Positions 13,731 to 32,343 of a DNA stretch of 43,889 nucleotides are shown one piece after another (the first letter of the stretch is position 1; the number at the start of each line of letters is the position of its first letter). Origin of the DNA: Verrucomicrobiota bacterium (GTDB lineage Bacteria > Verrucomicrobiota > Verrucomicrobiia > Limisphaerales > CANJSG01); the NCBI GenBank assembly GCA_038209745.1, contig JBBQXJ010000037.1, positions 1 through 43,889 on the forward strand, read 5' to 3'. The notes under the pieces are model-generated. The model made no database searches. It was not told the origin of the DNA and saw only the letters and a list, made by a program, of their open reading frames with translations. Position numbers and translations under genes: made by a program.

Positions 13731-14675
13731 CTATTCGCCGGTCGTTCGATGGACTAGGTTTTCCGCGACGGATCGGCATAGCCCGACGAAGGTCTCCTCG
13801 GCCAACGTCATCCGCCGGCCCTTCCAGTGCATCACGCCCCAGCTCCGAACCAGCTTCCGCCGCCCCAGCGCCAGGGCCACCAACGAACCGTCCGCGAGTT
13901 CATCCTCGCAGATCCAGGGAGCGAGGATGCTCACGCCGAGCCCCAGCTTCACCAGTTCCTTGATCGCCTCCATGCTGCCCAGCTCGATGAAGGAGTGCAG
14001 CACCACGCGATCCTCACGGAAGTATTCATCCACCAGGCGAAAAGTCTGGCTGTTGCGGTTGTAGAGCACGTAGTTCTGCTTCGCCACTTCGGCGCGGTCC
14101 ACTTTTCCGGCCAGGGCCCACGGATGCATCGGCGGCAGGATGAAGACCAGGTCGTCCTTGAAGATCGGGATGAACTCCACGCTCTCTTCGCGGCGCGGCT
14201 CCAACGCCAGGGCCAAATCGATGCGGCTGTCGCGCAACGCGCCGAGCGCATCGGGGGTGTCGCCCGGCTCGATCGCGATCTGATAGTCGGGGAATGATTC
14301 CTTAAACTCCCGCAACACCGCCGGCAGGATATATTGGCAGGCGGTCGGCGTGGCCCCGATGCGGAGCCGGCCCTTGCCCCACTTGCCCAGATGCGCGAGC
14401 GAGGTCTTCGCGGCGGCCATCTCCCGGAAAATCTTTTCCACATGATGATGGAGCTGCTCGCCCGCCTGCGTGAGGACCACCTTTTTCGTCAGCCTGTCAA
14501 AAACTCGACAGCCGACCGCTTCCTCCAACGCACGGATGGAGTGGCTCACCGCCGACTGCGACAGGTTCAGTTCCCGCGCCGCCAGAGTGAAACTACCCGC
14601 CTTGGCGAGGCGGAGAAACGCGAGGAGCTGCCTGCTATCAAGCGGCTCGTTGGTCCATGAATCCGGTTCATTCAT
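13731..14675 (-). CDS. LysR-family transcriptional regulator
   Basis: SFTLAARELNLSQSAVSHSIRALE HTH, LTQAGE, MEAIKELVKLGLGVSIL; divergent from the nitrate operon; start uncertain. Confidence 0.93.
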   Translation of the reverse strand: MNEPDSWTNEPLDSRQLLAFLRLAKAGSFTLAARELNLSQSAVSHSIRALEEAVGCRVFDRLTKKVVLTQAGEQLHHHVEKIFREMAAAKTSLAHLGKWGKGRLRIGATPTACQYILPAVLREFKESFPDYQIAIEPGDTPDALGALRDSRIDLALALEPRREESVEFIPIFKDDLVFILPPMHPWALAGKVDRAEVAKQNYVLYNRNSQTFRLVDEYFREDRVVLHSFIELGSMEAIKELVKLGLGVSILAPWICEDELADGSLVALALGRRKLVRSWGVMHWKGRRMTLAEETFVGLCRSVAENLVHRTTGE

Positions 14676-14692
14676 TCGATGAGCTTTATCGG
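14657..14692. promoter_or_regulatory. LysR-type T-N11-A box ATGAA-N5-TTCAT plus a second degenerate ATGA box
   Basis: Palindrome ATGAATCCGGTTCAT at 14657-14671; ATGAGCTTTATCGG at 14679. Confidence 0.6.
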
Positions 14693-14720
14693 GAGCACGA
14701 ATTGGACCCGTCACCGGACA

Positions 14721-14736
14721 TGGCACCATCGCAGCT
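14721..14736 (+). promoter_or_regulatory. Putative sigma54 -24/-12 promoter
   Basis: TGGCAC-CATCG-CAGCT with exact GG-N10-GC spacing, just upstream of ATG 14751. Confidence 0.6.
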
Positions 14737-14750
14737 AGGTGGGCCGCCAG

Positions 14751-15857
14751 ATGGCGATCATTGGACAAATAGACGCACCGGGCTTCCGCCCCCTCCGCTC
14801 GGGCCGAGGCACCCAGCGACTGAAGCTGGGCTTCGTGCCGTTGTGCGACTGCGCTCCATTGGTCGTCGCGCAGGAACGCGGCTTCTTCGCGTCTCACGAT
14901 CTGAAGGTCGAACTCGTCCGCGAGATAGGATGGGCGACCGTGCGCGACAAGCTCGTCCACGGCGAACTGGACGCCTCCCACACGCCCGCCGGTCTGCCCC
15001 TCGCCTGCACCCTCGGCCTCGGCTGCGTGCCCACGCCCTGCCTCACCGCGCTCGTCCTGAATCTCCAGGGCAACGCCATCACCCTCTCCGGCTCGCTCTG
15101 GGAGAAGGGCGTGCGGGACGCCGCCACTCTCGGCGAATGGTTCCGCAGCGAACGCCGCCGAGAACCGCTCAGCTTCGGCATCGTCTTTCCCTTCTCATCC
15201 CATCGTTTCCTTTTGGAGAAGTGGCTCCGCACCGGCGGCCTCCTGCCGGAGCGCGATGTCCGATTCGTCGTCGCGCCGCCATCCCAGATGCCCACCAATC
15301 TCAAGGCCGGCCACCTCGCCGGCTTCTGCGCCGGTGAACCGTGGAACTCGGTCGTCGTCCAAGCCGGCGACGGCTGGTGTCCCGCGACCAGCGCCGAGCT
15401 CGCACCCGGCCATCCGGAAAAGGTCCTGATGGTCCGTCAGGCCTTCGCCGACCAAAACCACGACACCCACCTCCGTCTCGTCGCCGCGATCCTCGCCGCT
15501 TGCCGCTACTGCTCCGATCCCGCCCACCACGACGACATCGCGAAACTCATCGCCCAGCGCCGCTACGTGAACGCACCGGTGGATCTCGTTCGCCGCAGCT
15601 TCGGCGCCCGCTTCGATCCGGGCTACGGCCGCCCCTCGCCCTCCGGACCTTTCACCGTCTACCACGACCAGGACTGCAACGCCCCGTCGCTTGAAGGCGG
15701 CGCGTGGGTTCTCCGCCACTGCCTGCCCGCTCCCGTCGCAGGCCGCAGTTTTTCCCAGACCGTCCAGAATTCGTTCCGCGCCGATCTCTTCGAACAGGCC
15801 GCCTCCCTGGCTCCCGGAGACTCCGCCCACTCCAGCCGATCTCTCAACCCCGCCTAA
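14751..15857 (+). CDS. CmpA/NrtA-fold protein without signal peptide (NasS-like cytoplasmic nitrate sensor)
   Basis: [38 protein letters not shown]; no hydrophobic N-terminus. Confidence 0.85.
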
Positions 15858-15876
15858 GAGCCACCCACCAAGCCGC

Positions 15877-17253
15877 ATGAACCCACCCTCCGTGATACTT
15901 TCCCATCGGCCGGCCGCCTGTCCCAGGTTCCTCTCCACGACGTTCGGCGTCTGGCTCGCCGCAGTCGCCCTCGCCTCCGGCCTTCCGCTCCACGCGGCCA
16001 AGATCGAGAAGGAAGACCTCAAGTTCGGCTTCATCAAGCTGACCGACTGTGTCCCCATCGTCATCGCCAAGGAAAAGGGCTACTTCGAGGAGGAAGGCCT
16101 CTACGTCACCGTCGAAGCCCAGGCCAACTGGAAGATCCTCCTCGACCGCGTCATCTCCGGTGAACTCGACGGCGCCCACATGCTCGCCGGCCAACCCATC
16201 GCCGCCACCATCGGCTTCGGCACCAAGGCCGAGATCATCACGCCCTTCAGCATGGACCTGAACGGCAACGGCATCACCGTCTCCAAGGAGATCTGGGAGA
16301 AGATGGTCGCCGGCAATCCCGACCTGAAGGGCGACCATCCCAAGCGCCCGGTGAAGGCCGATTCGCTCCTGCCCATCGTCAAGGAGTTCAAAAACAAAGG
16401 CACGCCGCTCAAGCTCGGCATGGTCTTCCCCGTCTCGACCCACAACTACGAATTGCGCTACTGGCTCGCCGCCGGCGGCATCAGCCCCGGCTACTACACG
16501 CCGGCCGACATCAACGGCAACACGGACGCCGACACGTTGCTCTCCGTCACCCCGCCGCCCCAGATGCCGGCCACGCTCGCCCAAGGAACCATCCAGGGCT
16601 ATTGCGTCGGCGAACCCTGGAACCAGCAAGCGGTGCTCAAAGGAATCGGCGTCTCCGTCATCACCGACTACGAGATCTGGAAGGACAATCCTGAGAAGGT
16701 TTTTGGCGTGACCAAGAAGTGGGCCGAGGCGAATCCCAACACCATGACCGCCGTCACCAAAGCCCTCATCCGCGCCTGCAAATGGCTCGACGAAAAACCC
16801 GAGAACCGGGTCGAGGCCTGCAAGATCCTCAGCAAGTCCGAATACGTCGGTGCGGACTACAACGTCATCGCCAACTCGATGACCGGCACGTGGGAATACT
16901 TCAAGGGCGACAAGCGCGAGCTCCCCGACTTCAACGTCTTCTTCCGCCACAACGCCACCTATCCCTACTACAGCGACTGCATCTGGTATCTCACCCAGAT
17001 GCGCCGCTGGGGCCAGATCAACGAAGCCAAATCGGACGAGTGGTATGTCGAAACCGCCAAGAAGGTCTATCGCCCCGACCTCTATCTGATCGCCGCCAAG
17101 CAACTGGTCAAGGAAGGCAAGCTGAAGGAATCCGAAGTCCCCACGACCGACGGCTTCAAGCCCGCCACCGCCGAGTTCATCGACGGCATCGAATACGACG
17201 GCAAGAAGCCGAACGACTACATCAAGAAGTTCCCCATCGGCCGCAAGGACTGA
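15877..17253 (+). CDS. nrtA: Nitrate ABC transporter periplasmic binding protein (NrtA/NasF)
   Basis: Signal peptide, [44 protein letters not shown]. Confidence 0.93.
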
Positions 17254-17257: not shown

Positions 17258-17404
17258 ATGATCGACGCGCGGCTCGTTGAAGCGACGCGTCCCCTCACCC
17301 GCCCTGTCGGTCACCTCCTCCCCATCCGATGGGAAGAGGGCCGGGGTTGGCCACACAATCCCGATCTAGCCACGAAGACCTGTTTCCGAAGGACCAAACC
17401 ATGA
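17258..17404 (+). other. Bridge ORF 1 (48 aa) across a repeat-containing spacer
   Basis: Hand-translated: ATG 4 nt after the nrtA stop, open to TGA 17402-17404 overlapping nrtB ATG 17401. Confidence 0.5.
17291..17347. repeat. Palindromic CCCATCCGATGGG / GAGGGCCGGGGT repeat element
   Basis: Related copy at 30449-30487. Confidence 0.75.
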
Positions 17405-18390
17405 GTGAACCCGAATCCGAATCCACCCCGTTGCTCCAGCGTTGGCTGAAGAAACAGTCGCCGGAGCAGATCGTTCGCGCCCTCGCGGCGAACGTCGGTG
17501 TTCCGCTCCTCGCCATCGCCATCTTCCTGGGTTGCTGGTCGTTCGTCGCGGCCCACATCAAGGTCAGCTTCGGCCAGCTTCCGGGACCGGTGTCCGTCAT
17601 GGAACAGGCCAAGGGGATGTGGGCCGAGCACCGCATCGAGCGGGACAAGGAAACCGCCTTCTACAAACGCCAGGCCGAACGCAAGGCCAAGACCCTCGCC
17701 GAAGATCCGAACGCCGAATGGAAGGAGCGCAAATACGCCGGCAAGCCGACCTACATCGACCAGATCTTCACCAGTCTCCTCACCGTGTTCACCGGCTTCA
17801 TCTTTGCGGCCGTCGTCGCCGTTCCCCTCGGGATCGTCTGCGGACTCAGCAAGGCCTTCAACACGGCCGTCAACCCGTTCATCCAGATCTTCAAGCCCGT
17901 CTCGCCCCTCGCCTGGTTGCCCATCGTCATGTTGATGGTCAGCGGTCTCTACAATCCTCCGGAGCCGATGTTCCAGAAGGCCTTCCTCACCTCCGCCATC
18001 ACCGTCGCGCTCTGCTCCCTTTGGCCCGCGCTCATCAACACCACGTTGGGCGTCGCCTCCATCGACCCGGACTACCTGAACGTCGCTAAGGTCCTGAAGC
18101 TCGGCTGGTTCAAGAAGGTCTTCAAGATCGTCATCCCCGCCGCCATGCCGCTCATCTTCACCGGCCTGCGCCTCTCGCTCTCGGTCGGCTGGATGGTGCT
18201 CATCGCCGCCGACATGCTCGCGCAGAATCCGGGCCTCGGGAAATTCGTCTGGGACATGTTCCAGAACGGCTCCAGCCAGACGCTTTCCCAGATCATGGTC
18301 GCCGTCTTCACCATCGGCCTCATCGGGTTTGCCCTCGATCGGATCATGCTCACGCTCCAGAAGGCCGTCAGCTTCGACAACAACCGGTAG
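17401..18390 (+). CDS. nrtB: Nitrate ABC transporter permease (NrtB/NasE)
   Basis: QIFKPVSPLAWLP, LINTTLGV, GWMVLIAADML; multiple TM helices. Confidence 0.93.
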   Translation: MSEPESESTPLLQRWLKKQSPEQIVRALAANVGVPLLAIAIFLGCWSFVAAHIKVSFGQLPGPVSVMEQAKGMWAEHRIERDKETAFYKRQAERKAKTLAEDPNAEWKERKYAGKPTYIDQIFTSLLTVFTGFIFAAVVAVPLGIVCGLSKAFNTAVNPFIQIFKPVSPLAWLPIVMLMVSGLYNPPEPMFQKAFLTSAITVALCSLWPALINTTLGVASIDPDYLNVAKVLKLGWFKKVFKIVIPAAMPLIFTGLRLSLSVGWMVLIAADMLAQNPGLGKFVWDMFQNGSSQTLSQIMVAVFTIGLIGFALDRIMLTLQKAVSFDNNR

Positions 18391-18392: not shown

Positions 18393-18572
18393 ATGGATCG
18401 CGCCCACACACCCCCACGGAACGGAGAAGCCCCATGGATGCAGCATCGTTTCGCGGCGACCAAGCCGGGCGTTCCCGGTGAGCCGTCCCCGTCTGCGCCG
18501 GAGACGCCCGATGCATCGTGGCCAAGAGGCACAGCCCGGCGGCGCACCCGTTTCACGGAGGCTTCTAGGTGA
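18393..18572 (+). other. Bridge ORF 2 (59 aa)
   Basis: Hand-translated: ATG 2 nt after the nrtB stop, open to TGA 18570-18572 overlapping GTG 18569. Confidence 0.5.
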
Positions 18573-19702
18573 CCCTTTTGACCGTCAGCTTCCTGCCGTT
18601 GACCGATGCAGCGCCGTTCCTCGTGGCCCAGGCCAAAGGCCTGTTCAAGCAGCAGGGCGTCGAGGTCGCGCTGCGGCGCGAATCCAGTTGGACCGCGCTG
18701 CGCGACGCCCTCAACAAAGGCACCTCCCAAGCCGCGCAGATCCTGTTCGGCATGCCGGCCGCCGCCGCCTGCGGCCTGCTCGGGGACAAACAGAAACCGC
18801 TCGTCGTTCCCTGGATTCTCAGCCGCAACGGCCAGGCCATCACGCTCAGCAACCGCCATCGTGGCGTGGTCACCAGCGACTCCTCCGCGCTCCTGGCGCT
18901 GGCCCGCGAACGCCGCGATGCCGGCCGGCCGCTCGTCTTCGGCCACACCCTCCGCGTCGGCACCCACGCGATGTGGCTCCGCTATTGGCTGGCGGCCGGG
19001 GGCATCCATCCGGACGAGGACGTCGCGCTCATCACCGTCCCGCCCCCGCAGATGGTCGGCAACATGAAGACCCGCAGCGTCGACGGGTTCTGCGTAGGCG
19101 AACCGTGGAACGCCCGCGCCATTTCCGAGGGTCTCGGCTACACCGCCGTCACCTCGCAGGAAATCTGGCCCGATCATCCGGAGAAGGTCTGCGCGTTCTC
19201 CGGGGAATTCGCCGAAGAGAATCCCGACACCGTCGTCGCCACCCTGAAATCGCTCCATCAAGCCGGCCTCTGGCTCGACGACGAAGCCAACCACGACGAA
19301 GCCGCCACGCTTCTCGCCCAGCCCGATTTCTTGAACTGCGACGCCGCTTGGATCCGCTGCCGCTTGGGACCCAAGGTCGACTATGGCGATGGCCGCACCC
19401 GTTCGCTCGACCACTCGCTCGTTTTCGCCAAAGGCGGCGTGAACCGGCCGTCTCCCGGCTACGCCGTTTGGTTTCTGACCCAGCTCCGACGCTGGGGCCT
19501 GCACTACGGCACGCCCGACTACTCCGGAGTTTCCACCCGCGTCATGCGGCCCGACATCTACGAACGGGTGGTCGCAGAACTCGGCCTCACCGACACCGAG
19601 CCGACAGATCCCAAGGAAGCGTTCTTCGACGGCAAGGTCTTCGATCCATCCGATCCCGAAGGCTACGCCACCGGCTTCACCCTCAAAACCCTCCTCGGCT
19701 GA
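18569..19702 (+). CDS. Second signal-less CmpA/NrtA-fold protein (like the NrtC C-terminal regulatory domain)
   Basis: [46 protein letters not shown]; an in-frame TAG directly upstream rules out a longer N-terminus. Confidence 0.88.
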   Translation: MTLLTVSFLPLTDAAPFLVAQAKGLFKQQGVEVALRRESSWTALRDALNKGTSQAAQILFGMPAAAACGLLGDKQKPLVVPWILSRNGQAITLSNRHRGVVTSDSSALLALARERRDAGRPLVFGHTLRVGTHAMWLRYWLAAGGIHPDEDVALITVPPPQMVGNMKTRSVDGFCVGEPWNARAISEGLGYTAVTSQEIWPDHPEKVCAFSGEFAEENPDTVVATLKSLHQAGLWLDDEANHDEAATLLAQPDFLNCDAAWIRCRLGPKVDYGDGRTRSLDHSLVFAKGGVNRPSPGYAVWFLTQLRRWGLHYGTPDYSGVSTRVMRPDIYERVVAELGLTDTEPTDPKEAFFDGKVFDPSDPEGYATGFTLKTLLG

Positions 19703-19707
19703 CGCGC

Positions 19708-20616
19708 ATGGCATTCCTCGAAATCAAAAACGGCTCGAAGACCTACCTCCGGGGCAGCAGCCGGACCGAGGTCTTGACCGACATCAACCTGGAGATCAAC
19801 GAGGGCGAGTTCGTCGCGATCATCGGCTACTCCGGCGCCGGCAAGAGCACGTTGATCAACTTCCTGACCGGCCTCGTGAAGTCGGACACCGGCAGCGTGA
19901 CCCTGGAAGGCAAACCCATCGAAGGCCCGGGCCCGGATCGAGGCATCATCTTCCAGAACTACTCCCTGCTCCCTTGGCTCAGCGTCTTCGGGAACATCGC
20001 CCTGGCCGTCGATCATATCTTCCCAAAGTGGTCCGCCGAAAAGCGTCGCGAACACATCGAGAAGCACATCGCGATGGTCAATCTCACTCCGGCCCGCGAC
20101 AAGAAGCCCCGAGAACTCTCCGGCGGCATGCGCCAGCGCGTCAGCGTCGCCCGCACGCTCGCGATCAGCCCGCGAATCCTGCTCATGGACGAACCCTTCG
20201 GCGCGCTCGACGCGTTGACCCGCGCCACGCTCCAACAGGAAACCCTCCAGATCTGGGAGGGCGACAAGAAGACCGTCGTGTTGATCACCAACGATCCCGA
20301 CGAAGCCATCCTCATGGCCGACCGCGTCATCCCCCTGACCGCCGGACCCAAGGCGACCCTCGGGCCCAGCATCCCCGTGACCTTGCCGCGACCCCGTCGC
20401 CGCGCCGAGCTGAACGAAAGCTACGACTTCAAACAGATCCGCGCCGAAGTGGTGGACTACCTCCTCAAAGCCACCGACCGGAAGAAGGGCGGTTCGACCG
20501 TTAATCTCGTGCTGCCCGACATCGAGCCGGAAGACCTCTCCAACCCGAGATCCTACGCCGGCCGCAAACGCCCCGTCCGCCGCAACGAGATCAAACAGGA
20601 AACGGTGAGCCAATGA
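19708..20616 (+). CDS. Nitrate ABC transporter ATP-binding subunit (NrtC/D-like)
   Basis: GYSGAGKST, LSGGMRQR, MDEPFGALD; the H-loop reads ITND. Confidence 0.93.
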   Translation: MAFLEIKNGSKTYLRGSSRTEVLTDINLEINEGEFVAIIGYSGAGKSTLINFLTGLVKSDTGSVTLEGKPIEGPGPDRGIIFQNYSLLPWLSVFGNIALAVDHIFPKWSAEKRREHIEKHIAMVNLTPARDKKPRELSGGMRQRVSVARTLAISPRILLMDEPFGALDALTRATLQQETLQIWEGDKKTVVLITNDPDEAILMADRVIPLTAGPKATLGPSIPVTLPRPRRRAELNESYDFKQIRAEVVDYLLKATDRKKGGSTVNLVLPDIEPEDLSNPRSYAGRKRPVRRNEIKQETVSQ

Positions 20617-20948
20617 CGATCTACGCTCCAGCTGCCAAGTCCGGTCCAGGTACCGATGTTCCATCCGAGGCCCAAAGGGCCCGAATCAATCCAGCCCAGG
20701 GCAACGCCCTTGGTGGCGGCGAACCCATCCGTCCGAGTCCTGAAAGGGCGGACTATCGAACACCCGTCTTCTTCGCGGCCCGTCTGCGCGCAACAGCAGC
20801 GGCAACACGCTCCTTGGGGGCTGGGTTCATCGGATTCCTGTTCCGAAAGCGACGCGCCGCTCTGCGCTGGATTGGATTGATTCCGGCCCGTTGGGCCTCC
20901 GTTCCCGCCAGTCACCAAGCGTTCGCCACAGACCATCGATCATCATGA
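20613..20948 (+). other. Bridge ORF 3 (111 aa), repeat-derived
   Basis: ATGA overlap with the upstream stop (20613-20616) and with the downstream start (20945-20948). Confidence 0.5.
20669..20754. repeat. Cluster of REP-like hairpins (GGCCC-AAA-GGGCC; AGCCCAGGGCAACGCCCTTGG; AGTCC-TGAAAGGGC-GGACT)
   Basis: Short palindromes read directly from the sequence. Confidence 0.65.
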
Positions 20949-21829
20949 GCGCCTACCTGGACATCTCCCAGCTCACCAAGGTCTACCCTACGCCCAAGGG
21001 CCCGGCCGTGATCGTCCACAACTTCAACTTGAAGATGAAGGCGGGCGAGTTCGTGTCGATCATCGGCCACTCCGGCTGCGGCAAGAGCACCGTGCTCATG
21101 ATGGTGGCCGGCCTGAACCCGATCACCGAAGGCGTCATCGTTCTGTCCGGAAAGGAGATCACCGGCGCCGGTCCCGACCGTGGCGTCGTCTTCCAATCCC
21201 CTTCGTTGCTTCCGTGGCTCTCCGCGTTGGACAACGTGATGCTCGGCATCAACCAGGTGTTCTTCACCGCCAGCAAACAGGAGCGCCGCCAGATCGCGGA
21301 ATACTACCTCTCGGTCGTCGGACTCGGCGATTCCATGGACAAGAAGCCGGGCGAACTCAGCCAAGGCATGCGCCAGCGCGTGGGCATCGCCCGCGCCTTC
21401 GCGCTCAAGCCCAAGATGCTGCTGCTGGACGAGCCGTTCGGCATGTTGGATTCCCTCACCCGCTTCGAGCTCCAGCAGGTCCTCGTCAACCTCTCCCGCA
21501 AGAACCAGATCACCTCCATGATGGTGACGCACGACGTGGACGAGGCGCTCTTCCTCTCCGACCGCGTCGTCTGCATGACCGACGGTCCCGCCGCCGAGGT
21601 CGGAGACATTCTCGAAGTCAATTTCCCCCGTCCCCGCGACCGCAAGGCCGTGCTGGAACATCCGGACTACTACAGGCTCCGTGCCCACCTCATCGAGTTC
21701 CTCGAGATCCACGCCCACAAGAAGCACGCTTCCGCAGTGCCCCCCTTTTCCAAGCCCCCCAATACGGATCGATCCCTTGATCTGGATCAAACCAACCCCA
21801 CGCCAGAATCCGAGACTGCCCCTGCATGA
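20945..21829 (+). CDS. Nitrate ABC transporter ATP-binding subunit (NrtD/NasD-like)
   Basis: [34 protein letters not shown]. Confidence 0.94.
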
Positions 21830-23133
21830 AAACCACGCCCTACCGACCCACCCCAACCGCCGTTGCCCTGGCGTCGCTCTTGCCGATGCTGTCCGCGTCC
21901 GCCGCGGAGACGGCCGCCACCGCGCCAAGTTCGGTGGAGTCCTTCTTCAATTCCCAGGTCCCCTCGGCGTTCGCCAAGGGCAAGTTCAACCTGAATGCCC
22001 GGCTCCGCTTCGAGTATGCGGACCAGGAAGGCGGCACCCCGCCCGCCCACGCCTACACCCTTCGCACGCGCTTCGGCTACACGACCGCTTCGCTCTACGG
22101 GTTCCAGGCCATGCTCGAAGGCGAAAACATCACCGCCTTCGACAAGGGCTCGTATGCTCCCGGCCCCGGTTCGGTCGTTCCGAAAGATGTGGTCGCCGAC
22201 CCCACGGGCACCGAGATCAACCAAGCTTGGCTCGGCTACAGCAACACGAACTACATGGTTTCCGTGAAGGGCGGCCGGCAGGTGATCAATCTGGACAACC
22301 AGCGTTTCATCGGCGACGTCGGCTGGCGCCAGAACCAGCAGACCTTCGACGCCGCCGGTGCGAACTATTCGCCGATCAAGGGCCTCGACCTCTCCTACAA
22401 CTACGTCTGGAAGGTCAACCGCATTTTCGGCAACGACAGCACGCTCGCTGCGACGACGAGCAATTTCGACTCGGAATCCCACCTGATCAACGCGGCCTAT
22501 ACCTACTCGCCTTTGTTCAAGGTCGTCGGCTATGGATACCTGCTCGACCTCAAGACGGAACGCGGGGCCGCGCCCGGCAACGCCGCGAATTCTTCGGCCA
22601 CCTACGGTGCCTACGTCAGCGGCACCTACACCTTCGACAAGGCCAACAAGGGCACCGTCAGCTACCGCGCCGAATACGCCTACCAGTCCGACTACGCCGA
22701 CAGCGCGCTCAACTACGAAACCCGCTACTACGTAGGGGAACTCGGCGCGACCTACGGCATCTTCAACACCGGCGTCGGCTACGAAGTCCTGGGCTCCGAC
22801 AATGGAGTTGGCTTCAAAACCCCTTTGGCCACGCTCCACGCCTTCAACGGCTGGGCCGACGTCTTCCTCAACACCCCCGCAGGCGGCCTGAAAGACCTCT
22901 ACTTTTCCGTCGGAGCGATGTTGCCCGGCAATGTCCCGGTCAAGGCGATCTACCACAAGTTCGACGCCGAAACCGGCGGAGCGGACCTCGGTCAGGAATT
23001 CGATCTAGTGGCTTCCAGGAAGTTCGGCAAAAACTGGACCGTCCTCGCCAAATACGCCAACTACGACGGAAAGGATGCCCCGTCCGCCTTCGACAAGCAG
23101 GTCTTCTGGGGCCAGGTCGACTTCAACTTCTGA
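21826..23133 (+). CDS. Outer-membrane beta-barrel (alginate-export/AlgE-like porin family)
   Basis: Signal peptide, [43 protein letters not shown], terminal Phe. Confidence 0.85.
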
Positions 23134-23157
23134 CACCCGACCGGTCTTTCCCCGGTC

Positions 23158-23480: not shown

Positions 23481-23519
23481 TCTATCCACTGCGTCCCCCG
23501 GAATAGATTGGTTGCTTTT

Positions 23520-23748: not shown

Positions 23749-23763
23749 TGGAGTTGAGCAGAG

Positions 23764-25563
23764 ATGCCTGCCCGCCTTCTATCAGATGATGAACTAGAGG
23801 AACCTACCGTCACGCCGTCGGACCCCAGGGCCTCGGCGCGTTCCGGCTCGCCCCGGTCGCATTTCTCCTCAGACATCCCGGTCGATCCGATTGCGACCTT
23901 CGTCGACGTGCTCCTCGCCGAGCAGCGCGACCTCACCGCGGCCGAGCGCTTCGCCTTCAAGCACCGCTCCGGCGAAATCCCCAGCCAGGCACGCTACTAT
24001 CGGAACCTGATTCCGCTGTCGAAACCCGGTGTCGGCGAGCAATACGCCTTCGAAGTCAATCTGGACCAGTGTTCCGGCTGCAAAGCCTGCGTCGCTGCTT
24101 GCCATTCGTTGAACGGCCTGGAGGACGAGGAATCGTGGCGGACCGTCGGATTGCTGATCGGGGAAGCCCCTGAAAAGCTCGGCGCTGACATCGGCTTCAG
24201 GGATCCGGCATCCGGTACCAGGCATCAACCTTCCGCTCCCATCCAGCGCACCGTCACCACCGCCTGCCATCACTGCGCCGATCCCGGATGTCTCAATGGT
24301 TGCCCAGTCCTCGCCTACGAAAAGGATCCTCTCACCGGCATCGTCCGTCACCTCGATGACCAGTGCATCGGCTGCCAATACTGCGTGATGAAATGCCCGT
24401 ATGAGGTGCCGAAGTTCTCCAAGCGCCTCGGCATCGTGCGCAAGTGCGACATGTGCAGCCAACGTCTCGCCGTGGGCGAAGCGCCTGCCTGCGTTCAATC
24501 CTGCCCCAACGAAGCCATTCGCATCGCCGTCGTCGATGTCGCGGAGGCGCTCGCCGTAGGCCGGCCATCCCTGCCCGGGAAGTTTTCCAAGACCGTGCCG
24601 GGCAAGGGCGCCCGACCTCCAAACCCATTTCTCCCCGCCTCGCCGCGTCCGGGAATCACCGTTCCCACCACGCGCTATTTCTCCACGGTCCTGACCACCT
24701 CCACCCTCCGCGCCGCCGACGAGGCCGCCCTGCATCCCGCCGACCCACATCTGCCACTGGTCGCGATGCTGCCGCTGTCCCAGCTCTCGGTGGGACTGAT
24801 GGTCGGCCTCGCTCTATCAGGCTCACTTTCTGCGCTGAAAACTGGAGTGACCGTTTCGTTCATCGCCATGTCGATCGCGCTCGGGGTGGCCACGCTGCAT
24901 CTCGGGCAGCCGCTGCGCGCCTGGAAAGCCTTCCTCGGCTGGCGCAAGTCGTGGTTCAGCCGCGAGGTCATCGCCTTCGGCCAATACCACGGTTTTCTCG
25001 GGCTCTTCACCGCCGTCCTCTGGCTGAAGCCCGAACTGCTGACCGCCGCGATCGGGCATCCGGCATCCGGCATCGCCGCCCTCCTCGGTCTCGGCTCCGT
25101 CTTCTGCTCCGTGATGCTCTACGCCGACACCCAGCGCGAATTCTGGTCGTTCGGCCGGAGCTTCGGGAAGTTCTTCGGCTCGGTCACGCTCCTGGGACTC
25201 GCCGGTAGCGGCACGCTGCTCGATAGCTCCGCGTGCTGGGGCGCGACCATCGCCGTGTTCCTCGCAAAGCTCGCGACGGACTTGGAGATTCTCCGTTTTC
25301 TCAAGGTTCCCGGGTTTCCACCTCTCAAGAAATCCGCGCTGCTCATCACCCGCCGTTTCAGCCGCATCGCCTTTGCGCGGGTCGCCTTCGGCATCTGCGG
25401 CGGGGTCCTGCTGCCCGGCGCCTTGCTCGTCGCGCGACATCCGTTCGGCCGCGCCACCGGGTTGGTAGCCGTCCTGCTTCTGCTGGCGGGAGAGATGTGC
25501 GAGCGCTTCCTTTTTTTCGCCGCCGTTGCCCCGACGAAGATGCCGGGAGGAATCTCCGCATGA
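23764..25563 (+). CDS. 4Fe-4S (DmsB-like) domain fused to a DmsC/YnfH-type membrane anchor
   Basis: [70 protein letters not shown] and TM helices. Confidence 0.9.
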
Positions 25564-27848
25564 CGAAGCCCGCCACCAGTCCGCAAGCCACCGTCCTCGG
25601 AAACGCCCTTCGCTCGATCAACGGCCGGATGACCACCGAGCTCGTCCAGGTTCCCGGCGACTTTGGTTTGGGCCAAGTACCGTCGCGTCTCGCGCCCGAC
25701 GCGACCACCACGTCCGTCTGCGGCTTCTGCTCCACAGGGTGTGGGCTGAAGATCCATCTCAAGGACGGCCAGGCCGTGAACCTGTCGCCGGAGACGGATT
25801 ACCCGGTGAATCTTGGCATGGCCTGTCCCAAGGGCTGGGAAGCGCTCACCCCGCTCGCCGCCCCGGACCGCGCCACCACGCCCCTTTTCCGCGGAGCTGA
25901 TGGCGTCCTGCGCCCCGTCGAATGGGAAACCGCGATCGGCGCCTTCTGCGACCGCTTCAAGAACATCCAGACCGAGCACGGCGCGCACTCCGTCGCTTGG
26001 ATCGGCACGGGCCAGATCTGCGTGGAGGAATTCGCCTTTCTCGGCGCTCTCGGGAAGTTCGGCATGGGAATGAAGCACGGCGACGGCAATACCCGCCAGT
26101 GCATGGCCACTGCGGCCGTCGCCTACATGGAATCGTTCGGCTTCGACGCGCCGCCCTTCACCTACGCCGACTTCGAGCAGTCGGACGTGCTGGTCTTCAT
26201 CGGCGCCAATCCCTGCATCGCGCACCCGATCATGTGGCAGCGCGTGCTGCGCAATCCGAACAAGCCCGAGATCATCGTCGTCGATCCCCGCCGCACCGAG
26301 ACCGCCGTCAACGCCACCCAGCACCTGCCGTTGAAGCCGAAGTCGGATCTCACCCTGCTCTATGGCCTGGCCCATCTGATCATCGAGAATGGCTGGATCG
26401 ACGAGGGGTTCATCGCGGAGTCCACGACCGGCTTCGACGAATTCCGCGAGTTCGTCCACCGCTTCACGCCGGACAAGGTCGCCGCCGAAACCAACCTGAC
26501 CGTCGGCCAGATCTACCACTGCGCCGAGTCCATCCATCGCGGCAAGGCCGTCAGCTTCTGGTGGACCATGGGCGTCAACCAGAGCCACGAGGCCACCCGC
26601 ACCGCGCAGGCCATCATCAACCTCGCGCTCATGACCGGAAACATCGGCAGACCCGGCACCGGAGCGAACTCGATCACCGGCCAGTGCAACGCGATGGGCA
26701 GCCGGCTCTTCAGCAACACGACCAATCTCCTCGGCGGCCACGATTTCAAGAACCCTGTCCACCGTGCGAAAGTGGCCGGCGTTCTCGGCATCGACGAAAG
26801 ACTCATCCCGCACGAAGCCTCCTGGGCCTACGACCAGATCATGGACGGGATCGACCGGGGCGAGATCAAGGGTCTCTGGATCATCGCCACCAACACCGCC
26901 CATTCCTGGATCAACCAGAACTCGGTGCCCGATCTCTTCAAGAAGCTGGATTTCCTCGTGGTGCAGGACATGTATGCCACGACCGAGACCGCGCAGCTGG
27001 CGGACCTCGTCCTGCCCGCTGGCGGCTGGGGCGAAAAGGAAGGAACGCTGATCAATTCCGAACGCCGCTTCGGTCCGGTAAAGAAGGTCTCCCGCGCGCC
27101 CGGCCAGGCATTGAGCGACTTCAACATCTTCCGCCTGATCGCCCATGCCTGGGGCTGCGGCGAGATGTTCCGCGAATGGACTTCGCCCGAAGCCGTCTTC
27201 CGCATCGTCCAGCAAATCACTGCGGGCCAGCCGTGCGACATCACCGGCATCGAGGGCTACCAGATGCTCGACGAATGCGGCGGCGTGCAGTGGCCGTGGC
27301 CGGCCAAGCCATACGGAGCCATGGAATCGAGGAGGGAAGGAGCCTTGGGAACCGATCGCTCCAGAAATCCAGAACTCCAGAACTCCGTCCCCGAGCAGGA
27401 GCGCCGCCTCTTCGCCGACGGCAAGTTCTTCACCCCCGACGGCCGCGCCAGGTTCGTCTATGAAGAACCACGCCCCGTCGCCGAACCGACCAGCCCCGCA
27501 TATCCGTTCGTGCTGTTGACCGGCCGCGGCACCTCGGCCCAGTGGCACACCAACAGCCGCACCGCCAAGTCCGCCATTCTCCGCCAGCTCTACCCAGCCA
27601 ACGCCTACGTCGAGATCAATCCCGAAGACGCGGCGCGCCTCGGCATCGAGCCCAACAGCCGCGTCGAAGTCTCCTCCCCACGCGGCCGGATCGTCGCCAC
27701 CGCCTTCGTCACCGGCACCGTGCAGCCCGGCCAGATCTTCATGCCCATGCACTATGCCGAAACGAACAAGCTGACGCACCCGGCCTTCGATCCGTATTCC
27801 CGCCAGCCCAGCTACAAGCACTGCGCCGTGAACCTCAAACCCGCCTGA
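25560..27848 (+). CDS. Cytoplasmic molybdopterin nitrate reductase, catalytic subunit (NasA/NarB-like)
   Basis: CGFCSTGC...[38 protein letters not shown]; no Tat RR and no C-terminal BFD domain. Confidence 0.92.
27315..27386. repeat. Inverted arrays of 8-bp units (GGAGnnnn ... CTCCAGAA) inside the nitrate reductase CDS
   Basis: GGAG/GGAA at 27315, 27323, 27331 and 27339; CTCCAGAA-ATCCAGAA-CTCCAGAA-CTCC at 27359-27386. Confidence 0.7.
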
Positions 27849-27851
27849 GCC

Positions 27852-28217
27852 ATGAACCGGATCGCCGAAGAAATCCGCACGTTCGACGCGGAGAAGCTGG
27901 TCCGCTTCTCCGACGAACGCGCCACCGTGACCGAACTGTCCGTCACGGAATTCTCGCGCATCGCCGTCTGGGGCGTGAAGCCAGGCCAGGAAGTCGGCGC
28001 CCACACGCATCCGGCCGGACAGGACACCTGGGTCATGGTTCGCGGCGAGCTGACCTACTACCTCGGCAACGGTCGGACCCGCACCATCCGCGCCGGCCAG
28101 CTCGACATGGCCGACCGCGACGAAGTCCACGGCGCCCGCAACGACGGGAGCGAAGACGCCGTCTTCCTCTCCATCTACAACGCCCCCGAGATCGGCTGGG
28201 CCAAGGCGCAGGCGTGA
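27852..28217 (+). CDS. Cupin domain protein
   Basis: PGQEVGAHTHPAGQDTWVMVRG and EVHGARN cupin motifs. Confidence 0.88.
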   Translation: MNRIAEEIRTFDAEKLVRFSDERATVTELSVTEFSRIAVWGVKPGQEVGAHTHPAGQDTWVMVRGELTYYLGNGRTRTIRAGQLDMADRDEVHGARNDGSEDAVFLSIYNAPEIGWAKAQA

Positions 28218-28438
28218 TGAAACCGATGGGTCCATCCGATCCGGTGCGTCCTGTCCGGCTTAGTGGCACAGGCGCACCCGCCTGTGTCCGTTCTCCGCGC
28301 GCCCCGATCCGGAGTTCCTCAGCAGACGCGGACGCCTGCTGCACCGACACAGGCGAGGGCGCCTGTGCCACTAAGCCGTTCCGCTTCGACGTTCGGCGTT
28401 CGCAGCGGGTTGTCCTTTTTTCCCCTTTCCCGCCATGA
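28217..28438 (+). other. Bridge ORF 4 (73 aa) carrying a REP doublet
   Basis: TGATG overlap with the cupin stop; TGA 28436-28438 overlaps nirA ATG 28435. Confidence 0.5.
28256..28378. repeat. REPIN-like doublet of inverted GTGG-type REP palindromes
   Basis: Perfect 20-bp IR CGGCTTAGTGGCACAGGCGC (28256-28275) / 28359-28378, extending to 33 bp with 2 mismatches; each arm is internally palindromic. Confidence 0.85.
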
Positions 28439-30264
28439 GCACCGCCACTCTCCCTGCCGCACCAACCGGCGAATTCACCGCCGAACAGAAAGAGTATCTC
28501 GCAGGGCTCCTGGCCGGCGTCGCCCAACGCCGGATGTATCCCTACATCGGTGTCATGGCCGGCGGCGCGTTCACCGCCACGCCCGGCGAAGGCGGCCCCA
28601 ACCTCGCCGCGCCACAGGCGGAGACTTTCCACGGCACACCCCTCGAAGACCTCTGCAAACAGGAGCTGTGGAAGCACCAGGAACACGGCCTCGATTGCTG
28701 GGACCAGTTGCTGGCCCACGCTTCGGAGAACAAGAAGCCAGACGACGAACACAACTACCGCTTCCGCTTTCATGGCCTCTTCTGGGTCTCCCCGAACCAG
28801 GAGTCGTTCATGCTCCGTTGCCGCATTCCGGCGGGTGAATTGACCGCCACCCAGATGCGCGGATTGGCCGACATCTCGGACGCTTGGGGCAACGGCAAAT
28901 CCGCCATCACCACCCGCTCCAACCTCCAGATCCGCGAGATCGAGCCAAAGAACGCCGTCAATGTCCTGACCAAGCTCCAGAGCATCGGCCTGACCGCCCG
29001 GGGCTCCGGCGTGGACAACGTCCGCAACGTCACCGCGTCGCCGACGGCCGGAATCGACCGCCAGGAGTATCTCGACACGAGGCCCTTCGCCCACGGCATC
29101 CACCATTACATCCTGAACAACCGCGACCTCTACGATCTCCCGCGCAAGTTCAACATCGCCTTCGAAGGGGGCGGCGCCATCGACACCGTCGCCGACACGA
29201 ACGACATCGGCTTCATGGCCACCCTCGTAGGCCGGGCATCCCGGCCTACGGTCTCGGGCACCTCGGTCAAGGATGGTTCCACCGTCGCGCTCGAACCGGG
29301 CGTCTATTTCCGGGTCGAGCTCTGCGGCATCACCGGCCACCAGCAGTTCGCCAGCGACTCGGGCATCGTCATCAAGCCCGGCGAGTCCATCGCCGTCAGC
29401 GCGGCCATTCTCCGCGTCTTCGCCGAACACGGGGACCGCACCGACCGCAAGAAGGCGCGCCTGAAGTATCTCGTGGACAAGTGGGGCGTCCCCAAGTTCC
29501 TCGAAGAGGTCCAGAGGAAGCTTTCGTTCCCGTTGGTGAAGCTGCCCATCGACCAATGCACCGTGCGGCATCCCTCGATTCGCCACGGCCACATCGGCAC
29601 TTTCCGCCAGGTCCAGCCCGGCAAGAACTACATCGGCGCCGTCATCCCCGTCGGCCTCATGTCGACGAAGCAGATGCGCCGCATCGCCGACCTCGCGGAG
29701 AATTATGGCTCGGGCCAAGTCCGTCTGACGCCGTGGCAGAATCTCATCCTGCCCGACATTCCCGACGGCTTTGTCGAAACGGTGAAACGCAACCTCGTGA
29801 AGACGGGCTTCCACCACGAAGCGACCCACATCCTCGGCGGGCTCGTCGCCTGCACCGGCAACAACGGCTGCAAATTCTCCAGCGCCGACACCAAGGGCAA
29901 CGCCATCGCCCTCGGCAACCACCTGGGCAAGAAGTTCGAGCTCGACCAGCCGATCAACCTGCACTTCACCGGCTGCCCGAATTCCTGCGCCCAGCACTAC
30001 CTGGGCGACATCGGATTCCAAGCGGTCCGGGTGGCCGTCGCCGGCGAATCGGTCGAGGGCTACAACATCGTCTTCGGCGGCGGGTTCGGCCACCAACAGG
30101 CCGTTGCGCAGCCCGTCTTCAGCAACATTCCCTTCACGGACATTCCCGCCCTGATCGAGAAGGTCGTCTCGGTCTACCAGTCGCAGCGCAAACCGGGCGA
30201 ACGCTTCGCCGAGTTCACCCGCCGCTTCAAAGCGAAGCAGCTCCAGGAGATGTTTTCGGAGTGA
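28435..30264 (+). CDS. nirA: Siroheme nitrite reductase (ferredoxin-type NirA family)
   Basis: TTRSNLQIR, DNVRNVT, LPRKFNIA, ACTGNNGC, TGCPNSCAQH; nitrate-cluster context. Confidence 0.92.
   Translation: MSTATLPAAPTGEFTAEQKEYLAGLLAGVAQRRMYPYIGVMAGGAFTATPGEGGPNLAAPQAETFHGTPLEDLCKQELWKHQEHGLDCWDQLLAHASENKKPDDEHNYRFRFHGLFWVSPNQESFMLRCRIPAGELTATQMRGLADISDAWGNGKSAITTRSNLQIREIEPKNAVNVLTKLQSIGLTARGSGVDNVRNVTASPTAGIDRQEYLDTRPFAHGIHHYILNNRDLYDLPRKFNIAFEGGGAIDTVADTNDIGFMATLVGRASRPTVSGTSVKDGSTVALEPGVYFRVELCGITGHQQFASDSGIVIKPGESIAVSAAILRVFAEHGDRTDRKKARLKYLVDKWGVPKFLEEVQRKLSFPLVKLPIDQCTVRHPSIRHGHIGTFRQVQPGKNYIGAVIPVGLMSTKQMRRIADLAENYGSGQVRLTPWQNLILPDIPDGFVETVKRNLVKTGFHHEATHILGGLVACTGNNGCKFSSADTKGNAIALGNHLGKKFELDQPINLHFTGCPNSCAQHYLGDIGFQAVRVAVAGESVEGYNIVFGGGFGHQQAVAQPVFSNIPFTDIPALIEKVVSVYQSQRKPGERFAEFTRRFKAKQLQEMFSE
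29226..29250. repeat. Perfect GTAG-type palindrome inside nirA
   Basis: CGTAGGCCGGG-CAT-CCCGGCCTACG (11-bp stem). Confidence 0.75.
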
Positions 30265-30271: not shown

Positions 30272-30568
30272 ATGACCGTTGGTCCTTCAAAAAACGCGCG
30301 CTCCATTCCGTGGAAACCATCCGGAATGAAGCCCACCGCGCCTTCAAGTCCGAAGGAACTCCGCCACTGCCTCTCCGCCGCCTCTCAAACCAACTGCGCA
30401 ACCGGATTGGGCGATAGGTCGAAGACCTCCTACCCGGCTTTCAGCCATCCTCTTCCCATCCGATGGGGGGAGGGCCGGGGTGAGGGGCTTCTCCCTGTTT
30501 TTCCAACCATCTTCCGTGGTCGACATCACCCCGTCGCTCCATCCCTCCCTATTTTCGCGAAGCCATGA
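30272..30568 (+). other. Bridge ORF 5 (98 aa), repeat-containing
   Basis: ATG 7 nt after the nirA stop; TGA 30566-30568 overlaps ATG 30565. Confidence 0.5.
30449..30487. repeat. Second copy of the CCCATCCGATGGG / GAGGGCCGGGGTGAGGGG element
   Basis: Matches 17314-17347. Confidence 0.75.
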
Positions 30569-32343
30569 GCCAGCCCGTCACCATTCTTCCCGTCCTCCCC
30601 GAGAATGCGCCGTTCAGCCCGGAGCAACGCGCCTACCTGAACGGTTTCCTCGCCGGACTCTATTCCTACACCACCGTGCCCGCCAGCGGGGCCACCTCGG
30701 CGCCCGCGACCAAGCCGCTCGTTCCGCTGACGATCTTGTTCGGCTCTCAAACCGGCACCGCCGCGAAGCTGGCCAAAGCCGTCTCCAAGGAAGCGTCGAA
30801 GCACGGCTTCGCCCCGACCCTCCACGACCTCGCGAAGTACCAGACCGCCCAGCTGGCCTCGGAGCCGAATCTCCTCGTCGTCGCCAGCACCTACGGCGAC
30901 GGAGAGCCGCCCGACAATGCGAAGGGGTTCTGGGATTTCCTCCGGGGCGCATCCGCTCCGAAGCTGGAACGGACGCGCTTCAGCGTGCTCTCCCTCGGCG
31001 ACTCGAACTACGCGAAGTTCTGCCAGTTCGGCAAAGACGTGGACGAGAAGCTGACCGCCCTCGGCGCCAAATGCGTCGCTCCCCGCATCGATTGCGACGC
31101 GGACTATGAGGAACCGTTCGCCAAGTGGCTCGCCACCGCCGTGCCGGCGTTGGCGCGGGCCGCCGGTTCTGCCTCCCCGGTGTCGGCCGCGACCGCATCT
31201 GACGAATCGGATCCAGCAGAACCCCGGTATTCCAGGAAGAAGCCCTTCCCCGCGAAGCTCGTCACCAATCGCAAGCTCAACGCCCCCGGCTCCGGCAAGG
31301 ATGTCCGCCATTTCGAGATCGAGCTGACCGGGTCCGACCTCGCCTACGAAGTCGGCGACGCTCTCGGCGTGCTGCCGACGAACGACCCTTTCCTGGCCGA
31401 CGAAATCGTCGCGGCCCTCGAAGCCAACGGGGACGACGCCGTCCCGGGAAAAGACGGTCGACCCGTTCCGCTGCGCGAAGCGTTGATCGGCCACTACGAC
31501 ATCGCCCGCATTCCGCAACCCTTCCTCAAGGCCCTCGCAGAACGATCCGGCGACGCCGCGCTGAACCAGTTGCTCGCGCCCGAAGCCAACGGTTCGTTGG
31601 CGAAATTTCTTTTCGGCCGTGAGGTGATCGACCTGCTCCTCGGCCATCCCACCGCCAAGTTCGGCGCGGCCGAGTTCATCGCCTTGCTGAAGAAGCTCCA
31701 GCCGCGGCTCTACTCCATTTCCTCCAGCCCCAAGGCCCATCCAGGCCAAGTCCACCTGACCGTCGGTGTCGTGCGTTACGAAACACACGGGCGCAAACGC
31801 GGCGGCGTCTGCTCGAACTTCCTCGCGGAACGCGCGGGTTCGGCACCTGTCCCGGTCTTCGTCCACGAGAACAAGGCCTTCCGCCCGCCCGCCGGCGACA
31901 AGCCGCTCATCATGTGCGGACCCGGCACCGGGATCGCCCCTTTCCGTGCCTATCTCGAAGAACGCAAAGCCACCGGCGCCAAAGGCCGCAACTGGCTCTT
32001 CTTCGGCGACCAGAAGTCCTCCACGGACTTCCTCTACGAAGAGGAGCTCAAGGCTTTCCACGAGGACGGGTTCCTCAATCGCCTCGACCTCGCCTGGTCA
32101 CGCGATCAGGCCGAGAAGGTCTACGTGCAGCAGCGGATGGTGGAGAACGCCAGGGAAGTCTTCGCCTGGTTGGAAGACGGCGCCGGTTTCTACGTCTGCG
32201 GCGACGCCAGCCGCATGGCCAAGGACGTCGATGCGGCACTCCATCAAGTCGTCGAAAAAGCCGGCGGTAAAACGTCCGAGCAAGCCGCCGGCTACATCCA
32301 GCAGCTCAAAGCCGAGAAGCGCTACCAGCGCGACGTGTATTGA
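30565..32343 (+). CDS. CysJ-like diflavin (FMN/FAD) NADPH oxidoreductase
   Basis: GSQTGTA, STYGDGEPPDN, LGDSNY, PRLYSISS, GPGTGIAPFR, YVCGDASRMAKDV, RYQRDVY. Confidence 0.94.
   Translation: MSQPVTILPVLPENAPFSPEQRAYLNGFLAGLYSYTTVPASGATSAPATKPLVPLTILFGSQTGTAAKLAKAVSKEASKHGFAPTLHDLAKYQTAQLASEPNLLVVASTYGDGEPPDNAKGFWDFLRGASAPKLERTRFSVLSLGDSNYAKFCQFGKDVDEKLTALGAKCVAPRIDCDADYEEPFAKWLATAVPALARAAGSASPVSAATASDESDPAEPRYSRKKPFPAKLVTNRKLNAPGSGKDVRHFEIELTGSDLAYEVGDALGVLPTNDPFLADEIVAALEANGDDAVPGKDGRPVPLREALIGHYDIARIPQPFLKALAERSGDAALNQLLAPEANGSLAKFLFGREVIDLLLGHPTAKFGAAEFIALLKKLQPRLYSISSSPKAHPGQVHLTVGVVRYETHGRKRGGVCSNFLAERAGSAPVPVFVHENKAFRPPAGDKPLIMCGPGTGIAPFRAYLEERKATGAKGRNWLFFGDQKSSTDFLYEEELKAFHEDGFLNRLDLAWSRDQAEKVYVQQRMVENAREVFAWLEDGAGFYVCGDASRMAKDVDAALHQVVEKAGGKTSEQAAGYIQQLKAEKRYQRDVY

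Follow-up and report, generated by a model that had tools for sequence, protein, structure and literature searches.

We describe two overlapping genes in a 43,889-nucleotide stretch of DNA (the window; contig JBBQXJ010000037.1 of assembly GCA_038209745.1, Verrucomicrobiota; Limisphaerales; CANJSG01) whose products would together form a membrane-linked nitrate reductase. The first gene encodes a protein in which a four-cluster iron-sulfur domain is joined to a DmsC-type membrane anchor (hereafter the fusion), and the second encodes a Nas-type nitrate reductase catalytic subunit (Nas). We lean, by a small measure, towards the view that the pair is a cytoplasm-facing menaquinol:nitrate oxidoreductase used for assimilation. 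The organism would then probably reduce nitrate for growth with electrons from the respiratory quinone pool, not with those of NAD(P)H or ferredoxin.

Bacterial assimilatory nitrate reductases are sorted in textbooks by their soluble donor, either ferredoxin/flavodoxin or NAD(P)H. We see even chances that the pair stands for a third, unrecognised donor class: Nas with a fused FeS-DmsC protein acting as a cytoplasm-facing menaquinol:nitrate oxidoreductase, widespread in Verrucomicrobiota and with related fusions in other phyla, through which nitrate assimilation draws on the quinone pool. If so, the textbook scheme would gain a membrane-linked class in the form of an inward-facing Nas fed by quinol, and this would be the second inverted DmsC/NrfD-type complex after SoeABC and the first to run from quinol to substrate. 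Reducing power would pass complex I before reaching nitrate, and both the potential for nitrate assimilation and its energy cost would be read differently from genomes and metagenomes. Carriers make up about one tenth of the phylum genomes that we sampled (42 of 401); because some of the known carriers are in culture, the idea is directly testable.

Architecture and conservation of the gene pair

The pair comprises the following features (positions are those of the window):

23764..25563, forward strand: fused four-cluster iron-sulfur protein and DmsC-type anchor, 599 residues (stop-free translation; Pfam, alignment and model)
23896..24033, forward strand: conserved N-terminal extension of the fusion, residues 45-90 (invariant Q54, F63, H67, Y79, P84 and P88; predicted contact with Nas)
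24037..24537, forward strand: four-[4Fe-4S] domain, residues 92-258 (hhalign against E. coli DmsB, 99.8%, E 9.4e-29; 16 invariant Cys)
24748..25521, forward strand: eight-helix NrfD/DmsC-type membrane domain, residues 329-586 (AlphaFold2 (AF2) helices with predicted local distance difference test (pLDDT) mostly >90; fold matches)
24898..24966, forward strand: candidate quinol site H379...S396, S399 and E401, in the cytoplasmic loop between transmembrane helices 2 and 3 (TM2-TM3), aligned to E. coli DmsC H65, S82, S85 and E87
25560..25563, forward strand: ATGA overlap of the fusion stop and the nas start, a sign of translational coupling (sequence; 4-base overlap in 56/76 loci)
25560..25718, forward strand: conserved N-terminal extension of Nas, residues 1-53 (invariant G22, G36-L37-G38, P41 and P46; predicted interface residues 14-51)
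25560..27848, forward strand: Nas-type nitrate reductase catalytic subunit with molybdenum-bis(pyranopterin guanine dinucleotide) (Mo-bisPGD), 762 residues (domains, alignments; without Tat signal and BFD tail)
26100..26102, forward strand: codon of Cys181, putative Mo ligand (aligned to NapA Cys140; invariant)

Two Pfam families were recognised in the fusion: Fer4_11 scored 72.3 bits over residues 165-254, and DmsC (PF04976) scored 58.1 bits over residues 328-585, with a cut-off of 22.3. The cluster cysteines fall into four groups, C103/106/109/113, C168/171/176/180, C201/204/207/211 and C228/231/243/247, and all 16 were invariant among the 36 family members that served as our reference for residue conservation in the fusion. 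The iron-sulfur part also matched FdnH (1kqf_B, 94.6 bits), and the C-terminal half aligned with E. coli DmsC over 246 columns (hhalign probability 88.6%). In the AF2 model, eight helices were confident across residues 330-586, and the fold of this membrane domain matched both ActC (8k9e_C; Z 20.8, root-mean-square deviation (rmsd) 3.4, 264 residues aligned) and menaquinone-bound PsrC (2vpw_C; Z 20.6, rmsd 3.7, 242 aligned). It was the one DmsC-family match in the genome. The score of the fusion against the DmsB-type model TIGR02951 (122.1) lay below the cut-off of 214.1, and current automatic annotations call the protein 'DMSO reductase anchor subunit' or, in JGI, 'formate dehydrogenase iron-sulfur subunit'. 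Unfused forms of the DmsC-like anchor look rare: there were 28 short matches to such relatives, mostly on contigs of 1-3 kb and hence cut genes, with three on contigs >15 kb.

The catalytic subunit contains the Pfam domains Molybdop_Fe4S4, Molybdopterin and Molydop_binding. The last of these ends at residue 756 of 762, which leaves six residues before the C-terminus and so no BFD tail. Its FS0 cluster ligands (C54, C57, C61 and C89) were invariant. The first Cys is preceded by 53 residues that lack both the RR pair of a twin-arginine translocation (Tat) signal and any hydrophobic run of more than four residues; the longest such run was at most six in the corresponding region of all 30 Nas orthologues checked, and a Tat motif or hydrophobic signal region was absent from all 30 and from all 36 fusions. 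An initial annotation of this DNA, made from the letters alone, had described this very arrangement, in which a four-cluster iron-sulfur domain fused to a DmsC-type anchor overlaps by ATGA with a Nas devoid of Tat signal and BFD tail, and each part of that description stood.

The closest solved relative of Nas was the monomeric NapA of D. desulfuricans (354 bits), with Cys181-Met182 of Nas aligned under Cys140-Met of NapA (...NTRQCMATA... / ...NPRLCMASA...). We take Cys140 of NapA to be its Mo ligand. The corresponding residues of formate dehydrogenases are (Se)Cys-His. The nearest annotated relatives were assimilatory nitrate reductases (34-37% identity), this was the only close Nas/Nap-like gene in the genome, and the score against the DmsA-type model TIGR02166 (127.3) was below its cut-off of 777.7. 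Thirty paired Nas enzymes formed a clade of their own (SH-aLRT 92, a Shimodaira-Hasegawa-like branch test) in a quick tree with few references and long branches. The putative Cys ligand in a nitrate-reductase motif, the lack of a signal and the clustering with genes for nitrate uptake and nitrite reduction suggest that Nas is an enzyme of the assimilatory type.

To find relatives of the fusion, we scanned species-representative genomes and kept the best 80 of 386 stretches as related loci. Almost all of these 80 were labelled Verrucomicrobiota, in keeping with the remark in the initial annotation that the architecture may be known genomically in Planctomycetes-Verrucomicrobia-Chlamydiae (PVC) bacteria. 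Four loci end too early to hold a downstream gene. In 73 of the other 76, nas lies directly 3' of the fusion gene, its product being 57-78% identical to the Nas of the window, and the pairing is therefore far beyond chance. The 4-base overlap reads ATGA in 46 of its 56 loci and GTGA in 10; another 14 loci have other short spacings, which depend on the chosen start, and the start is unclear in three. In the exceptions (L057, L062 and L077), a Nas orthologue is encoded at another place in the genome, at 60-66% identity by whole-genome search and at 58-63% by tblastn on the loci. The two proteins also co-occurred in an even draw of 401 genomes from the phylum, where the fusion (E 1e-60 or better) was found in 42 genomes and a Nas of at least 59% identity in every one of them. 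Three further genomes had a Nas match of 57-63% with no fusion at this threshold; two of them (G294 and G225) are fragments, and the third, G074, is real.

Cultured carriers of the pair belong to Limisphaera (sp. 4302-co), Roseibacillus (R. persicicus KCTC 12988) and Luteolibacter. Some loci bear outlying submitter labels (Fibrobacteres for L032, Deltaproteobacteria for L069, Solibacteraceae for L024). For one labelled Candidatus Methylomirabilota (L047), the phylum sample returned the same genome places as for the window, so that the submitter label disagrees with the GTDB grouping. A second, distant pair in G074 defines what we call clade 2; its fusion and Nas-like protein share 29% and 40% identity, respectively, with those of the window. 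Source names of clade-2 fusion relatives come from Latescibacteria, Omnitrophica and Hydrogenedentota, which indicates that the fused architecture is not confined to one phylum. The clade-2 pair (L095 637-14581; G074:C1:440000-456000) is flanked on one side by genes for a NirB-like/BFD protein, a multihaem cytochrome, a Tll0287-like protein and a globin, and on the other by nifHDK.

The locus was found in 20 DNA datasets, all of them sediment metagenomes. None of 58 plasmid-collection records covered at least 80% of the fusion. A scan of positions 23100-28500 for promoters and terminators was uninformative, with no promoter-like site and four terminator-like sites where 3.7 were expected. Our literature search, which left most subscription journals outside, found no description of Nas paired with a fused FeS-DmsC protein.

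Membrane orientation, candidate quinol site and predicted complex

We predicted the orientation of the membrane domain from the charges of its loops, using the AF2 helix boundaries. The iron-sulfur side carried on average 9.6 Lys and Arg residues and the opposite side 0.8, and the bias had the same direction in all 36 sequences. The homologous loops of E. coli DmsC have the opposite bias (2 versus 7). This inversion indicates that the module is turned over relative to DmsC and places the iron-sulfur domain in the cytoplasm, as in SoeABC. Topology was among the checks that the initial annotation had proposed, and the result agrees with its cytoplasmic placing.

The candidate quinol site lies on the same face. 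Besides the four loop residues listed above, R581 in TM8 aligned with DmsC R271, and H379, S396, S399, E401 and R581 were invariant in the 36 sequences and kept in the clade-2 fusions. According to the accessible part of PMC8076601, the quinone site is formed by Ser62, His65, Ser82 and Glu87 in DmsC and by His65, Ser82, Ser85 and Glu87 in SoeC, with a conserved arginine in TM8 (Arg271 in DmsC, Arg297 in SoeC); the same part of that paper cites mutants of His65 and Glu87 in which quinol oxidation was blocked.

For the complex prediction we supplied Nas and residues 45-270 of the fusion, with a separate alignment for each. The score was 0.68 (0.68, 0.81 and 0.68 in the individual runs), compared with 0.09 for the best control; pLDDT did not fall below 71 for the partners, and 62% or more of the contacts were shared between runs. 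In a benchmark, 116 of 157 solved complexes and 2 of 215 mismatched pairs attained the mark set for this score. In the predicted interface, the segment of Nas that surrounds the FS0 ligand C89 (residues 85-94) meets the first Cys group of the fusion (residues 102-128), and both of the family-specific N-terminal extensions (Nas 14-51 and fusion 45-78) take part.

In the mechanism that we favour, the two overlapping genes would yield a two-subunit complex iron-sulfur molybdoenzyme (CISM) turned to the cytoplasm. Menaquinol would bind at the cytoplasmic-face site of the eight-helix domain, formed by H379, S396, S399 and E401 together with R581, and electrons would pass along the four [4Fe-4S] clusters of the fusion to FS0 of Nas and on to the Mo-bisPGD, with Cys181 as its ligand. 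There, nitrate imported by NrtABCD would be reduced to nitrite, which would be handed to a NirA-family reductase, probably fed with NADPH through the neighbouring CysJ-like flavoprotein. We infer such a division of labour between the fusion and CysJ. The quinone may be menaquinone-7 (MK-7), since this is the sole quinone of Limisphaera strain 4302-co in the available sections of PMC13608581, and the genome of this strain (L034) bears the same gene pair. With quinol oxidation and nitrate reduction both on the cytoplasmic side, the step would not be electrogenic. Nitrate assimilation would in this way be linked to the respiratory quinone pool.

The nitrate-assimilation cluster and alternative explanations

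The pair is embedded in a nitrate-assimilation cluster with the order nrtABCD, porin, fusion, nas, cupin, nirA and cysJ-like gene, next to a divergent regulator gene:

13731..15194, reverse strand: LysR-type regulator (Pfam HTH_1 and LysR_substrate), divergent from the transporter genes; in 12/80 loci
15571..17253, forward strand: NrtA-like substrate-binding protein of a nitrate ATP-binding cassette (ABC) transporter (Pfam NMT1_2, 322.9 bits)
17329..18390, forward strand: NrtB-like permease (BPD_transp_1; TIGR01183 ntrB 159.9 bits, under the cut-off of 209)
18478..20616, forward strand: NrtC-like protein with an NrtA-like domain ahead of an ABC ATPase (NMT1_2 at 18569-19702; TIGR01184 ntrCD 294.6 bits, over the cut-off, residues 433-662)
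20891..21829, forward strand: NrtD ATPase (TIGR01184 316.3 bits, over the cut-off)
21826..23133, forward strand: Alginate_exp-type outer-membrane porin (Pfam PF13372, 47.5 bits); in 10/80 loci
27852..28217, forward strand: small cupin protein, 121 residues (Cupin_2, 47.3 bits); in 8/80 loci
28435..30264, forward strand: NirA-family sirohaem nitrite (or sulfite) reductase (NF007126, 803 bits, cut-off 523); in 59/80 loci
30565..32343, forward strand: CysJ-like NADPH diflavin reductase (Flavodoxin_1, FAD_binding_1 and NAD_binding_1; NF004859 478.8 bits, over the cut-off); in 54/80 loci

The set recurs among the related loci, with NirA in 59, CysJ in 54 and NrtD in 46 of the 80. The NirA-family and CysJ-like genes co-occur in 52 of them, and in the window the NirA-family gene is paired with the sole CysJ-like gene of the genome. 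NirA is usually annotated as ferredoxin-dependent. The arrangement suggests that NirA here is NADPH-dependent and built like the sulfite reductase CysJI. In the accessible sections of PMC13608581, the NirA of Limisphaera is drawn as ferredoxin-dependent.

Other observations concern single genes of the cluster and its surroundings. The helix-turn-helix of the LysR-type frame starts at residue 188, so its true start is probably later. In the NrtC-like protein, the NMT1_2 domain is N-terminal and the ABC ATPase C-terminal. Cyanobacterial NrtC has the opposite domain order. The Alginate_exp porin gene overlaps the end of nrtD and adjoins nrt genes in G074 as well; its product is a candidate outer-membrane channel for nitrate or nitrite. 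The cupin gene lies directly 3' of nas and is conserved at 65-71% in its eight loci, with no family match in NCBIfam. Long GC-rich spacers interrupt the cluster at 28218-28434, where there is a long imperfect inverted repeat at about 28262-28372, and at 30265-30564. An open reading frame (ORF) at 30272-30568 (98 residues) had no family match and a low-complexity translation, and we treated it as intergenic. Beyond the LysR gene and adjoining it lies a gene for a 641-residue multihaem cytochrome c (11726-13651, reverse strand; Cytochrome_C7, paired CXXCH, weak C552 matches). On the other side, a 1324-residue protein with CotH kinase, lamin-tail, chitobiase C-terminal and immunoglobulin (Ig) domains (32378-36352, reverse strand) is unrelated to the finding, and its gene adjoins that of a Ser/Thr kinase (36467-37906).

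The initial annotation had argued for a quinol donor in part from the lack of a diaphorase. This was right for the NasC/NirB type, since a profile scan of 31 window ORFs detected no protein of the NirB/NasC type (Pyr_redox_2), and nothing in the genome (92% complete) matched NirB above the cut-off. The premise was nonetheless wrong in substance: the CysJ-like NADPH diflavin reductase lies 2.7 kb downstream of nas.

A number of observations weigh against a quinol-driven Nas. The AF2 model of the iron-sulfur domain has a pLDDT of 30-50, too poor for a distance from the last cluster to the quinol site. Ser62 of DmsC corresponds to Ala376 in the fusion, with Thr377 adjacent, and the conserved loop residues could serve the docking of the iron-sulfur domain and not quinol chemistry. 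Since FdnGH, PsrAB and NarGH are alike and solved, the score of the predicted complex may reflect this likeness and is no proof of binding, which qualifies the outcome of the complex modelling that the initial annotation had proposed. Neither Nas nor the fusion reached an NCBIfam equivalog threshold; for Nas, the curated models gave 454.5 against 1000 (NasA_Halo) and 411.7 against 1100 (NasC). There was no RNA dataset among the listed holders of the locus. The Pontiella-like genome G074, from another class of the phylum, has a 55%-identical Nas standing alone beside nrt genes. The remaining points concern CysJ. The reductase is single in the genome and present in most of the related loci; in nine loci cysJ directly follows nas and not nirA (the Opitutales-type order nirA-fusion-nas-cysJ); and Actinomycetota records hold a Nas fused to a diflavin module, annotated as 'bifunctional nitrate reductase/sulfite reductase flavoprotein', so that NADPH could feed Nas. 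Such a NasN is reportedly discussed in mycobacterial papers. One may accordingly picture an NADPH-driven enzyme, in which the CysJ-like protein feeds both NirA and Nas, with the fusion's iron-sulfur domain as a possible intermediary to Nas, and the DmsC part is a tether (for instance near NrtABCD) or a relic. We regard this as rather unlikely, though the strongest of the competing explanations. A mere tether would not need quinol-site residues that are invariant in 36 sequences and in a clade only 29% identical. A flavodoxin-like donor would dock at the FS0 face of Nas, and the complex prediction shows this face covered by the iron-sulfur domain. A weak point is that cysJ is missing within 10 kb at seven loci that do have nirA and the pair, since the five of their genomes that were searched have CysJ homologues elsewhere.

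Instead of serving mainly assimilation, the same complex might be an electron sink that passes electrons from quinol to nitrate in a non-electrogenic manner, whether to balance redox or for intracellular dissimilatory reduction. Quinol-linked Nar and Nap are in general respiratory or redox-balancing, and pair-carrying Limisphaera strains reduce nitrate anaerobically according to the available part of PMC13608581. The same part, however, ascribes respiration to NarGHI homologues and draws the enzyme as an assimilatory NarB, and the genes to which the pair is tightly linked, for an ATP-driven importer of nitrate, a sirohaem reductase of the NirA family and a regulator of the LysR type, also speak against this role, which we consider improbable. 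That the substrate is formate or another oxyanion, or that electrons flow towards quinone reduction as in SoeABC, would surprise us greatly. The highest NCBIfam score of Nas is indeed to Fdh-alpha (472.9 bits), with no equivalog cut-off reached, and the JGI name of the fusion points the same way; yet the Fdh match covers only residues 53-580, compared with 57-759 for NasA_Halo, the active-site motif is the Cys-Met of NapA and not the (Se)Cys-His of formate dehydrogenases, and the nitrate-assimilation context is kept in most loci. We give just as slim a chance to Nas being a NarB-type enzyme that works alone with ferredoxin or flavodoxin while the fusion serves an unrelated function. The enzyme is labelled plainly NarB in the accessible part of the Limisphaera genome paper (PMC13608581), and the Nas of G074 does stand alone. 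Against this stand the 4-base overlap (56 of 76 loci), the co-occurrence of the two proteins (42 of 42 genomes) and their confident predicted interface. Moreover, the similarity of the stand-alone G074 Nas starts only at residue 51, so that the N-terminal extension that takes part in the interface is not recognisable there.

Quinol-driven, cytoplasm-facing assimilatory nitrate reduction, which the initial annotation had put forward, fits the co-occurrence, the overlap, the charge bias, the fold, the site residues and the predicted interface, even with one of its original premises removed. It is from these features that we infer the donor.

Comparison with known molybdoenzymes

The pair has the traits of a CISM: a Mo-bisPGD subunit with FS0, a four-cluster subunit and a cofactor-less anchor of the 8-10-helix NrfD/DmsC type, with a candidate quinone site in helices 1-4. 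Like NarGHI, the proposed complex would be membrane-bound and quinol-dependent, with a cytoplasmic active site and a four-cluster subunit. NarGHI, however, has the dihaem anchor NarI, oxidises quinol at the periplasmic face and is electrogenic. NarG and NarH also belong to a different clade from the pair described here (narH 41 bits). The resemblance to E. coli DmsABC is closer in the electron-transfer part, where the iron-sulfur domain is like DmsB, the membrane domain is like DmsC, the His, Ser and Glu residues of the quinol site and the TM8 Arg are conserved, and menaquinol is the presumed donor. E. coli DmsAB is exported to the periplasm by Tat, whereas the proteins of the pair lack such a signal and the anchor has the opposite charge bias. 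In addition, DmsB and DmsC are separate in E. coli and fused here, and the catalytic subunit is not DmsA-like.

That subunit is instead akin to NasA, NasC, NarB and the NasN-type fusions, with which it shares the features of a cytoplasmic Mo-bisPGD enzyme, FS0, the Cys ligand and a context of nitrate-uptake and nitrite reductase genes. Known donors of Nas-type enzymes are ferredoxin or flavodoxin, NADH through a diaphorase and NADPH through a fused diflavin module. We know of no Nas-type enzyme that is anchored in the membrane by a DmsC-type subunit. The Nas described here differs from known ones in lacking a BFD tail, in its conserved N-terminal extension of 40-50 residues and in forming its own clade.

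The nearest parallel in orientation is SoeABC of Allochromatium vinosum and Aquifex aeolicus, likewise a CISM without Tat signal. In the available part of PMC8076601, it alone is assigned to the N-side, its NrfD/DmsC-like anchor being inverted and its quinone site lying on that side too; within the same part, no nitrate reductase appears among the NrfD-anchored complexes surveyed, and Verrucomicrobia appear only with ActC/F. The SoeC site as given there (His65, Ser82, Ser85, Glu87 and Arg297) corresponds to H379, S396, S399, E401 and R581 of the fusion, a match made through the DmsC numbering rather than by direct alignment with Soe. SoeABC consists of three separate subunits, whereas the B and C parts are one polypeptide here. 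It oxidises sulfite and reduces quinone, whereas the flow proposed here would run from quinol to nitrate, and the catalytic subunit, unlike that of Soe, belongs to the Nas/Nap/Fdh group. The proposed enzyme would combine the NrfD-anchored CISM plan and a SoeABC-like orientation with a catalytic subunit of the Nas type and B and C parts fused into one protein.

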